Shown here piece by piece: positions 21,426-22,013 of a stretch of DNA of 51,502 bases (position 1 is its first letter; each line of letters opens with the position of its first letter). The notes below the pieces were generated by a model, which was not told the DNA's origin, searched no databases, and saw only the letters and a list, made by a program, of their open reading frames with translations. Source of the DNA: Escherichia coli (lineage in GTDB: Bacteria > Pseudomonadota > Gammaproteobacteria > Enterobacterales > Enterobacteriaceae); the NCBI RefSeq assembly GCF_048403405.1, contig NZ_CP183133.1, one strand, 5' to 3'. The position numbers and the translations under genes were made by a program.

Positions 21426-22013
21426 TAATACTCTCCTCCATCCTTTGCATGAATATAGTCACTCAGACTAATGATGACGCACAGCACAACCGGGTGTGTA
21501 CAACCGCGCGTCTGTCACCCGGATGATTTTCCCCTCACGTCATCATTTAAATGCTGATAATTAGCAGGCATATAGACACATCTTTAAATTACCTGACGGC
21601 CGCTCTGGCCGGATCCGACTTTTATGTTATTCCACAGTTTCCGGAAGTGTACCACGCACACGGAATAACCACAGCGCCCTTTCAGGGTGGTGAGCGGCCG
21701 GTCACGGGGCAGGGGAGGGGCACAACATATATGGTCACTGACAGCTGGAAACACCGCTACATCTTGTGTTTCCGGGCCGCTGCGCGCCGGCGGGGCTGAA
21801 TCAGATCCGGAACTGCCTTTTTTCGGATCTGAGCGGGAAAAGTGAGAAACCAACATAGGTGTAACATATCCATATGCCGGGCATCTGCATAGGCAAAGCA
21901 TACGCATATACCTACCATCTGCATATGTAACACCTATACAAGCCGGGCTTGCAGGCATATACTTCACCTATGCGGGAATACTCCCTGGCACACTCAGCAT
22001 ATGAGGAAAAACC

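Follow-up and report, generated by a model that had tools for sequence, protein, structure and literature searches.

What do the repeats and the hairpin upstream of the toxin-antitoxin genes vagCD do, and do they belong to vagCD or to the recombination system encoded next to it? We addressed these questions in a 51,502-nt stretch of DNA from Escherichia coli (the window). The window is an IncR-type plasmid, and positions 21430-22660 are 100% identical to plasmid pEhoE1-2 from Enterobacter hormaechei. An initial annotation of this DNA had described a pair of inverted 12-mers flanking several CATATG and GCATAT motifs, and a nearby hairpin, and had suggested that these are operator sites for VagC. 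We found that the 588-nt divergent intergenic region between the resD operon and vagCD probably holds two adjacent, separable elements: a vagCD promoter with an array of operator sites, and an rfsF-type hairpin.

The genes flanking the intergenic region

The genes on the two sides of the intergenic region, and the likely ribosome binding site of vagC, are as follows.

19594-20370, minus strand: resD, encoding a tyrosine recombinase (PF00589); last gene of the operon transcribed away from vagCD
20382-21098, minus strand: gene for a 238-aa protein; middle gene of the three-gene resD operon
21132-21425, minus strand: gene for a 97-aa protein; first gene of the resD operon
22003-22007, plus strand: Shine-Dalgarno sequence GAGGA, read from the sequence, 6 nt before the ATG of vagC
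22014-22244, plus strand: vagC (vapB), encoding a 76-aa AbrB/MazE-type antitoxin, the presumed repressor
22241-22657, plus strand: vagD (vapC), encoding a 138-aa PIN-domain toxin, the presumed co-repressor

VagC has the AbrB/MazE/SpoVT swapped-hairpin domain at its N-terminus, as judged by matches to PF04014 (E = 4.5e-9), to NF040493 (TA_anti_VapB; 92.5 bits, with a cut-off of 60), and to VapB proteins of solved structure. The closest of these is VapB from Salmonella Typhimurium LT2 (6ifm_B, E = 1.4e-7). The vagC and vagD reading frames overlap by 4 nt (ATGA, 22241-22244), as for a translationally coupled PIN toxin. VagD matches PF01850 (E = 1.3e-14), and its closest solved structures are VapC proteins that are tRNA(fMet)-specific endonucleases (E = 1.7e-29). 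VagD scored below the NCBIfam equivalog cut-offs for the tRNA(fMet)-specific enzyme (120 vs 140 bits). On the other side of the intergenic region, ResD is 91% identical to ResD from the F plasmid. One end of IS26 begins 18 nt past vagD.

Two open reading frames within the intergenic region were considered as possible genes and rejected, a 127-aa frame on the minus strand (21584-21967) and an 82-aa frame on the plus strand (21551-21799). Neither has a Pfam match and neither is annotated by RefSeq in the identical plasmid. In addition, array length changes in steps of 17 or 34 nt (see below), and this speaks against both as coding sequences.

A phased array of 17-bp units upstream of vagC

We found that the sequence in front of vagC consists largely of direct repeats in fixed register. 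The relevant features are as follows.

21854-21989 (end approximate), plus strand: phased array of eight 17-bp units, each a hexamer, 5 nt, and a second hexamer; proposed operator array for VagC or VagCD
21858-21869, plus strand: left 12-mer GGTGTAACATAT; spacer and second hexamer of unit 1
21923-21934, plus strand: right 12-mer ATATGTAACACC; first hexamer and spacer of unit 5

The units start at 21854, 21871, 21888, 21905, 21922, 21939, 21956 and 21973. Units 1 to 5 and unit 7 are well preserved (for example, CATATGccgggCATCTG) and those at 21939 and 21973 are degenerate. The register is easily seen from the motif CAT[AC], which occurs on the plus strand at 21854, 21865, 21871, 21882, 21888, 21899, 21905, 21916 and 21922, and then at 21956. 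The spacings are 11, 6, 11, 6, 11, 6, 11, 6 and 34 nt; that is, the tenth motif is in phase with the first nine. Autocorrelation of the array has peaks at lags of 17, 34 and 51 (z = 4.1, 4.65 and 4.6). The array has a super-period of 34 bp because the type of the second hexamer alternates from unit to unit, and a repeat finder also detected a 34-bp tandem direct repeat.

This arrangement is far from that expected by chance. The longest alternating 11/6-nt chain of CAT[AC] motifs in 2000 dinucleotide-preserving shuffles had four members, compared to nine in the array, and there was no second chain of at least four on either strand of the window. CATATG occurs three times and GCATAT four times in 21860-22013, compared to 8 and 15 times in the whole window. 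The departure from chance is due to the phased direct array, which the initial annotation had not noticed.

The inverted repeat that had drawn attention to the region is a consequence of this array. All of the strings that had been quoted are present once each in the neighborhood, and both 12-mers are displaced from where they had been placed: GGTGTAACATAT is at 21858-21869 rather than 21871-21882, and ATATGTAACACC is at 21923-21934 rather than 21925-21936. The two are reverse-complementary at 11 of 12 positions and so are not exact inverses, and both contain TGTAACA as a direct repeat. Their outer 7-8 nt are not conserved across vagCD loci. These outer arms (GGTGTAAC and GTAACACC) are the variable part, and do not pair in 5-8 of the 12 other vagCD loci compared.

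The 12-mers are near the ends of a larger imperfect palindrome found by the repeat finder (21855-21894 and 21898-21937; 83 nt in total, with 40-nt arms that are 75% complementary). The palindrome folds better than shuffled sequences on both strands (z about -3.9), as might be expected if it formed a cruciform, or a hairpin in an antisense or leader RNA. We regard such a structural role as highly improbable. There was no covariation in the 31 predicted pairs of the palindrome in our alignment of vagCD upstream regions (A1): none of the five measures exceeded the mean of the shuffles, and at most loci the variable positions do not pair. The pairing that exists stems from the invariant hexamers, which are internally palindromic. 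Changes in unit number destroy the dyad at other loci, and the palindrome is upstream of the predicted transcription start site. It does not belong to a known RNA family: an Rfam scan of 20000-24000 at E <= 1 gave mir-3912 alone (E = 0.31; 23 bits, with a gathering score of 95). We conclude that the dyad is a by-product of repeated hexamers that are themselves palindromic, and that the region is actually built as a tandem array of direct repeats.

A putative vagCD promoter lies within the array

Two hexamers within the array resemble those of a promoter recognized by sigma-70.

21935-21940, plus strand: -35-like hexamer TATACA, within the second hexamer of the unit starting at 21922
21958-21963, plus strand: -10-like hexamer TATACT, embedded in the first hexamer (CATATA) of the unit starting at 21956

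A promoter scan gave a spacer of 17 nt and a match to consensus at 9 of 12 positions. Transcription of vagCD from this predicted promoter is expected to start at about 21970. The unit from 21922 to 21938 is over the -35 and the unit from 21956 to 21972 is over the -10, and the second half-site of the latter, CCTATG at 21967, is 11 nt downstream from CATATA (21956). Four further good units (21854-21921) are upstream from these two. Judged by sequence, the promoter is covered by pseudo-palindromic, CATATG-like half-sites that are 11 bp apart, within the range of ~10-12 bp for such sites. The promoter hexamers recur at other vagC loci. The -10 is TATACT in 53 of 75 loci and TATGCT in 13, and TATACA is found 16-18 nt upstream from the -10 in 44 of the 75.

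The array is conserved upstream of vagC

We compared the window to vagCD loci on IncY, IncR/FIA, IncFIB, ColV, IncHI1B, IncFIB/FII/N, IncFIA and IncI-gamma plasmids, and on pKP187 and pESI (S. Infantis). The register of the array upstream of vagC was the same in 14 plasmid loci, and it was also found in loci from genomes. Most of the left flanks of these plasmid loci are unrelated to each other (they include genes for a HEPN nuclease, a DUF3800 protein, a nuclease-domain protein and a histidinol-phosphatase, as well as ccdAB and IncR genes), and several of the loci have no recombinase annotated beside vagCD. Across the aligned upstream regions, the hexamers are conserved and the 5-nt spacers, including the outer parts of the 12-mers, are variable. 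Several plasmid loci retain seven intact units. One locus (L014) has lost exactly 68 bp, that is, four units, and another (L013) is also short. Thus, when the proposed operator was compared across vagCD loci, the CATATG motifs were conserved in register and the 12-bp inverted repeat was not.

A protein homology search and a tblastn search of plasmids gave relatives of at least 80% identity, and a scan of one genome per species reached more distant VagC proteins, with 72 further loci in which VagC is 49-97% identical. The arrays in the genome loci range from one or two units to 11 (L048, with 18 phased hexamers). A matrix made from 186 distinct units from 37 loci has the consensus CATATGC-N4-CATATG, and positions 8-11 carry at most 0.23 bits. 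The way in which we selected units partly fixes positions 1-4 and 12-15 of this matrix, and leaves positions 5-7 and 16-17 and the empty spacer free. The combination of informative hexamers and an uninformative spacer is a footprint-like pattern, as might be left by a protein that contacts the hexamers.

The motif is also highly localized. In 62 genome loci from different species, the frequency of CATATG is 14.4 per kb over the 150 nt that precede vagC vs 0.22 per kb in the remaining 117 kb, a difference of ~65-fold. A strict pair, CATAT[GA]-N5-6-CATAT[GA], is present in just 25 of the 62 loci because many units have CATCTG or CATACG as the second hexamer; it is not a universal signature.

Distant homologues of VagC (62-82% identity overall) include those of Shewanella, Azoarcus, Oceanospirillaceae, Spongiibacter and betaproteobacterial MAGs, which are 62-77% identical. 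Here, one or two CATATG-N5/6-CATATG pairs are upstream of vagC, with the first hexamer fused to the -10 as CATATACT or CATATGCT and sometimes with a canonical TTGACA 17 nt upstream. All of these homologues have the same N-terminal segment as VagC, SIFKNGNN(R/Q)A(I/V)RLP, which is the counterpart of the beta-hairpin loop used for base contacts in solved VapB-DNA complexes. A conserved DNA-reading surface together with a conserved motif is what would be expected of a repressor and its operator.

We also considered the array as a set of replication iterons or a partition centromere. This was rejected: at each of the 14 plasmid loci and at the genome loci examined, vagC directly follows the array, whatever flanks the other side.

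The 17-bp unit resembles characterized VapB operators

We found no study of the vagCD operator or of vagCD regulation in the searchable literature. Several related systems have been characterized, and the 11-bp pairing of hexamers in the array matches the half-site spacing of AbrB-type VapB proteins (PMC3384007, PMC5389673), in agreement with the initial annotation, which had proposed such a comparison. VapB4C4 from Shigella flexneri binds two 30-bp operators, ACAATAGATATACACAAGACATATCCACAT and ATAAACGTATATCCCTTTGACATATCCCGG, that are over the -10 and -35 (PMC3384007); we confirmed the operator sequence in a Shigella pINV plasmid. Each of these sites has two (G/A)(T/C)ATATCC motifs that are about 12 bp apart, as shown by EMSA, and the putative VapB sites occupy adjacent major grooves (PMC3384007). 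In S. Typhimurium LT2, vapO1 and vapO2 each bind one octamer; VapC enhances binding and an excess of VapC releases it (PMC3378870). In Caulobacter, half-site 1 overlaps the -10, and the two half-sites occupy adjacent major grooves at a spacing of ~10 nt (PMC5389673). In Rickettsia felis, each VapB dimer reads an internally palindromic half-site, ARTAT/ATAYT (PMC3326315).

The vapBC genes (mvpAT) of S. flexneri pMYSH6000 and those of LT2 are similar to vagCD in several respects. All encode an antitoxin with the AbrB/MazE fold and a PIN toxin related to tRNA(fMet) endonucleases, and all have sites over the -10 and -35 composed of two ATAT-cored motifs ~11-12 bp apart. In addition, the Shigella motif ACATATCC recurs in the window as ACATATCCATATG. 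There are also clear differences. S. flexneri and LT2 have two separate operators ~39 bp apart, whereas vagCD has six to eight abutting 17-bp units, and elsewhere up to 11. Unlike the S. flexneri and LT2 operators, the vagCD array extends ~80 bp upstream of the -35 and is variable in copy number. The half-site is CATATG for vagCD and ATATCC for S. flexneri and LT2. VagC is distant from the VapB proteins of those two systems (E = 1e-7 to 4e-4), and the vagCD operator is one predicted from sequence.

The complexes of Caulobacter crescentus VapBC1 (5L6M) and R. felis VapBC2 (3ZVK) have an antitoxin dimer on each internally palindromic half-site, and a VapB4C4 octamer docks in adjacent major grooves on two half-sites 10-14 bp apart. 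The C. crescentus half-site over the -10 is similar to the minimal CATATG-N5-CATATG over the -10 in distant vagC homologues. In contrast to the single 27-bp operators of C. crescentus and R. felis, the vagCD unit is tiled 6-11 times without gaps. From its sequence, the vagCD unit is of the same design as the characterized operators of AbrB-type VapB proteins.

Multiple or repeated operator sites are also found with other regulators of plasmid toxin-antitoxin and partition genes. The ccd operator of F, the hexad repeats of relBE and the heptad arrays bound by the omega protein of pSM19035 all have repressors on short regular repeats, with cooperative autoregulation. These repressors have RHH folds and repeats of other lengths and are not homologous to VagC; the similarity is of logic only.

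Taken together, we conclude that 21854-21989 is likely to be the vagCD promoter with a tandem operator array of the VapB type that varies in copy number and to which VagC would bind.

The adjacent hairpin is probably an rfsF-type recombination site

The array is preceded by the following features.

21557-21832, no strand assigned: rfsF region, homologous to the rfsF/oriV1-proximal region of F and to the region upstream of ccdAB-rsdB in pSLT
21801-21832, no strand assigned: hairpin TCAGATCCGGAA-N8-TTTCGGATCTGA; candidate rfsF-type core site of ResD, with the invariant core AGATCCG ... TCGGATCT
21833-21853, plus strand: purine-rich linker (AGCGGGAAAAGTGAGAAACCA) that joins the right arm of rfsF to the array

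The hairpin that had been reported is real, with CAGATCCG at 21802-21809 and CGGATCTG at 21824-21831. Its full arms are 12 nt with one mismatch (21801-21812 and 21821-21832) around an 8-nt loop. Folded as RNA, it has a free energy of -19.6 kcal/mol (z = -3.7), and none of 200 shuffled sequences was as stable. The hairpin falls outside 21860-22013, the interval with which it had been grouped, and the regulatory region of vagCD itself does not include it.

Positions 21600-21832 align with the rfsF region of F. Hairpin arms are invariant in the six plasmids of an alignment of this region (A2; the window, F, pSLT, the S. Dublin virulence plasmid and two IncR plasmids, L018 and L019; 76% mean column identity), and similarity stops directly after the right arm. 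Other invariant blocks in the region include GATCCGA, TTTCCGGAAGTGTAC and CACAACAT. F carries AGATCCGtaacttggggttttCGGATCT at about nt 45,930-45,955 (NC_002483), and rfsF has been placed at the start of F nt 45922-52516 (PMC4398462). The position relative to the recombinase genes is also shared. The hairpin precedes the first gene of the resD operon by ~380 bp, a placement like that in F and pSLT. Matches to the hairpin alone are found about 350-490 bp in front of integrase operons without vagCD, and in F, pSLT, L018 and L019 the same hairpin precedes an integrase operon that has neither vagCD nor the array. That is, there is a ResD-family recombinase nearby with the site upstream, and the homology to F rfsF includes the inverted repeat. 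Covariation in the hairpin was weak and mixed in alignment A1 because many loci have lost the left arm.

Homology between plasmids often begins or ends within or beside this hairpin, which is indirect evidence for recombination by ResD there. BLAST breakpoints cluster there: some plasmids match just 21557-21815 (97% in one such match) and lack vagCD, and in others the match starts at 21802-21824 and runs rightwards. Almost every plasmid vagCD cassette retains the right arm, TTTTCGGATCT, including those in which other sequence has taken the place of the left arm, and the GAGAGAA block of the linker is kept across vagCD cassettes as conserved alignment columns. The IncR backbone has been described as having "rfsF-resD" next to vagCD, and 18 IncR plasmids have been reported to lack vagCD, with homology stopping at rfsF (PMC9412624). 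The window therefore has several features in common with rfsF-ResD of F and crs-rsd of the Salmonella virulence plasmids: a site upstream of a recombinase operon, invariant AGATCCG/TCGGATCT arms, and homology breakpoints at the site (PMC9412624, PMC8004404). It differs from these systems in that two genes of unknown function are in place of ccdAB before resD.

It is conceivable that the hairpin is instead a transcription terminator or insulator, either for the 82-aa open reading frame on the plus strand, which ends 2 nt before the hairpin, or for read-through into vagCD. The stem is stable, as noted above. We consider this to be very unlikely. There is no run of T residues after the stem on either strand (the T-run is in the loop), a terminator scan predicted none at 21801-21832, and the flanking operons are divergent; as the initial annotation had noted, the hairpin has nothing to terminate. 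Furthermore, the 82-aa frame, aside from lacking a Pfam match and a RefSeq annotation, spans the rfsF homology block, which has insertions and deletions between plasmids. Because of the homology to F, the invariant arms, the divergent operons and the lack of both a U-tract and a predicted terminator, we conclude that the hairpin is very probably an rfsF-type site of the adjacent ResD rather than a terminator.

The array probably belongs to vagCD rather than to the recombination site

The 17-bp repeats have reportedly been assigned before to the recombination system. Krause and Guiney (1991) reportedly defined the crs of pSDL2 as a set of eight incomplete direct repeats of 17 bp and, after these, an inverted-repeat segment with homology to oriV1 of F. 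If so, the repeats could be accessory sequences of the ResD/Rsd resolution site, with binding of the recombinase or an architectural factor giving directionality to the reaction, and their position in front of vagC would be incidental. This assignment is consistent with the reported 1991 description of crs, with the array abutting the rfsF hairpin in the window, the S. Dublin plasmid, pESI (L012), an IncFIA plasmid (L014) and many genome loci, and with long arrays being exclusive to loci that retain an rfsF arm.

Comparison of plasmids with and without vagCD argues for a different assignment. The S. Dublin virulence plasmid has the hairpin, then seven to eight 17-bp units, and then vagCD. pSLT encodes an identical Rsd protein (the same accession as in the S. 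Dublin plasmid) and has the same left arm of the hairpin, and it has neither the array nor vagCD. The point at which the S. Dublin plasmid and pSLT part is within the spacer of the hairpin. More generally, neither vagCD nor the array is present in the rfsF regions of F, pSLT, L018 and L019, whose recombinases are closely related or identical, and the same is true for the 18 IncR plasmids without vagCD (PMC9412624). Conversely, the array accompanies vagCD at six loci that lack both a recombinase annotated nearby and the left arm (L005, L006, L007, L009, L010 and L013), and minimal arrays are found over the -10 of vagC homologues in other bacterial orders, where there is no rfsF at all. Thus, the repeats do not accompany the recombinase and rfsF irrespective of vagCD. 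Because the array is absent from the rfsF regions of F, pSLT, L018 and L019 and is present with vagCD that lacks the recombinase and left arm, we assign it to vagCD and not to crs, as far as sequence comparison can tell. That the repeats are accessory sites for resolution, with vagC nearby by accident, seems improbable.

It is also possible that the array serves both systems, as the VagC or VagCD operator and as a repressor-coated architectural element in ResD synapsis that couples addiction to multimer resolution. Of the 39 loci with an arm, 30 have a constant distance of 30-47 bp from the right arm to the first unit, the purine-rich linker between the arm and the array is conserved, and, among 75 loci, arrays of at least eight phased hexamers are confined to those with a surviving rfsF arm. 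This pattern is expected anyway from the shared descent of a single plasmid cassette, and short arrays also adjoin the arm (L026, L041, L044 and L058). In addition, ResD and rfsF of F work without any 17-bp array. We think dual use unlikely, though somewhat less so than a role in resolution only. Common descent of one cassette explains the link between the array and the arm, and there may be a functional link as well. If there is, the array coated with VagC and VagD might form a nucleoprotein filament next to rfsF and provide accessory architecture for ResD synapsis, comparable to ArgR and PepA at cer, or it could be a titratable sink that sets the amount of free VagC. We offer these as speculative, and rather doubtful, extensions of the operator function.

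A model for the vagCD operator and the rfsF hairpin

Based on sequence comparisons and on analogy to solved AbrB-type VapB-DNA complexes, we propose that each palindromic hexamer is the half-site of one VagC dimer. The two hexamers of a unit, 11 bp apart, would be on the same face of the helix in adjacent major grooves, and VagD dimers would bridge these two half-sites to make a repressor complex of the VapB4C4 type. Complexes on the units over the -10 and -35 would block RNA polymerase, and the four extra units upstream could add cooperative occupancy. The array probably grows and shrinks in steps of 17 or 34 bp through recombination between repeats. At the hairpin, ResD, encoded 1.4 kb away, would resolve plasmid multimers, and crossovers in the hairpin spacer may have joined the vagCD cassette, carrying the right arm, to different backbones. 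The sequences themselves show how the two elements are built, how far they depart from chance, how they are conserved and co-occur, and what they are homologous to; from these we infer the binding of VagC and VagD, its stoichiometry, the repression of vagCD, and the action of ResD at the hairpin.

Packing is a constraint that counts against the operator part of the model. Sites of 17 bp that abut each other leave little room for octamers of ~100 kDa, and complexes on neighboring 17-bp units would be ~223 degrees apart around the helix.

Implications

The operator and rfsF are both elements of known kinds with roles in ordinary plasmid maintenance, although the array is exceptionally long for an operator. 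What is modestly new is the tiling of the units and the assignment of the repeats to vagCD, and neither overturns current understanding of toxin-antitoxin autoregulation or plasmid resolution. Of the addiction modules carried by resistance and virulence plasmids of Klebsiella, E. coli and Salmonella, vagCD is one of the most common, and more than 5000 plasmid records matched. Our results provide a concrete model of the operator, with a CATATG half-site, pairs of half-sites 11 bp apart and 17-bp tiling, in an array that expands and contracts. They should be useful in annotating plasmids, since the array attracts spurious calls of open reading frames. The arrangement would also explain why vagCD and rfsF are so frequently adjacent and why homology between plasmids breaks inside the hairpin. 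If the array does take part in synapsis, then addiction, multimer resolution and the exchange of plasmid cassettes would be mechanistically coupled, and the length of the array would tune them.

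Divergence of two virulence plasmids within rfsF

We found that pSLT parts company with the S. Dublin virulence plasmid inside the rfsF hairpin. The two plasmids have in common the recombinase Rsd and the left arm of the hairpin, and diverge within the hairpin spacer, where pSLT reads GGGAC|TACCTTTTTT and the S. Dublin plasmid reads GGGAC|CACCAGAAAC (region compared: 2515-2545 in the pSLT locus, L020; about 23340-23372 in the S. Dublin locus, L094). Of these two plasmids, only that from S. Dublin contains the array of phased hexamers and vagCD; pSLT does not. This pattern fits acquisition or loss of the cassette through recombination at rfsF.

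The following features of the window lie around vagCD and resD.

20382-21425, minus strand: two genes, of 97 and 238 aa, in front of resD
21998-22003: extra CATATG, adjoining the Shine-Dalgarno sequence and not in register with the 17-bp units of the array
22675-22688: IS26 terminal inverted repeat GGCACTGTTGCAAA, starting 18 nt past the vagD stop codon

Because the IS26 repeat starts so close to the end of vagD, the vagCD cassette is truncated on its right side by IS26.

The rfsF region and the array

Both hairpin arms contain a GATC (Dam methylation) site (21803-21808 and 21826-21831 in the window), and another lies elsewhere in the rfsF region, within its invariant GGATCCGA block (21611-21616). 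A purine-rich tract lies 3' of the right arm in all six plasmids of the rfsF alignment (window 21833-21853 and equivalent positions), at a place where their sequences are otherwise unrelated.

Among 75 vagC loci, arrays of at least eight phased hexamers were found only where at least the right arm of rfsF is kept, 30-47 bp upstream; loci lacking the arm had one to seven. The longest array found, in L048 (approximately 685-870; -216 to -35 from the ATG), has 11 units and 18 phased hexamers, and its second hexamer is CATCTG alternating with the reverse complement, CAGATG. The extra CATATG was seen only in the window and in other leaders of its type (L009, L037 and L026). It could be a further half-site or could be there by chance.

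Genes have been called across the array. On the minus strand, PGAP places a 153-aa "hypothetical protein" over the repeats (L002, 3028-3489; L004, 1290-1751), and among the VagC homologues (P0001-P0098) many gene callers lengthened VagC to 99-132 aa through the array. Both calls look like artefacts, because array length shifts in steps of 17 or 34 nt.

The slot in front of resD

The 97-aa and 238-aa genes, neither of which had a Pfam match, stand ahead of resD, where plasmid F has ccdA-ccdB. The same slot holds ccdAB and two unknown genes in pSLT, and five small unknown genes in L019. Thus, the cargo of the slot ahead of the recombinase seems to vary, and may include other addiction or defence modules.
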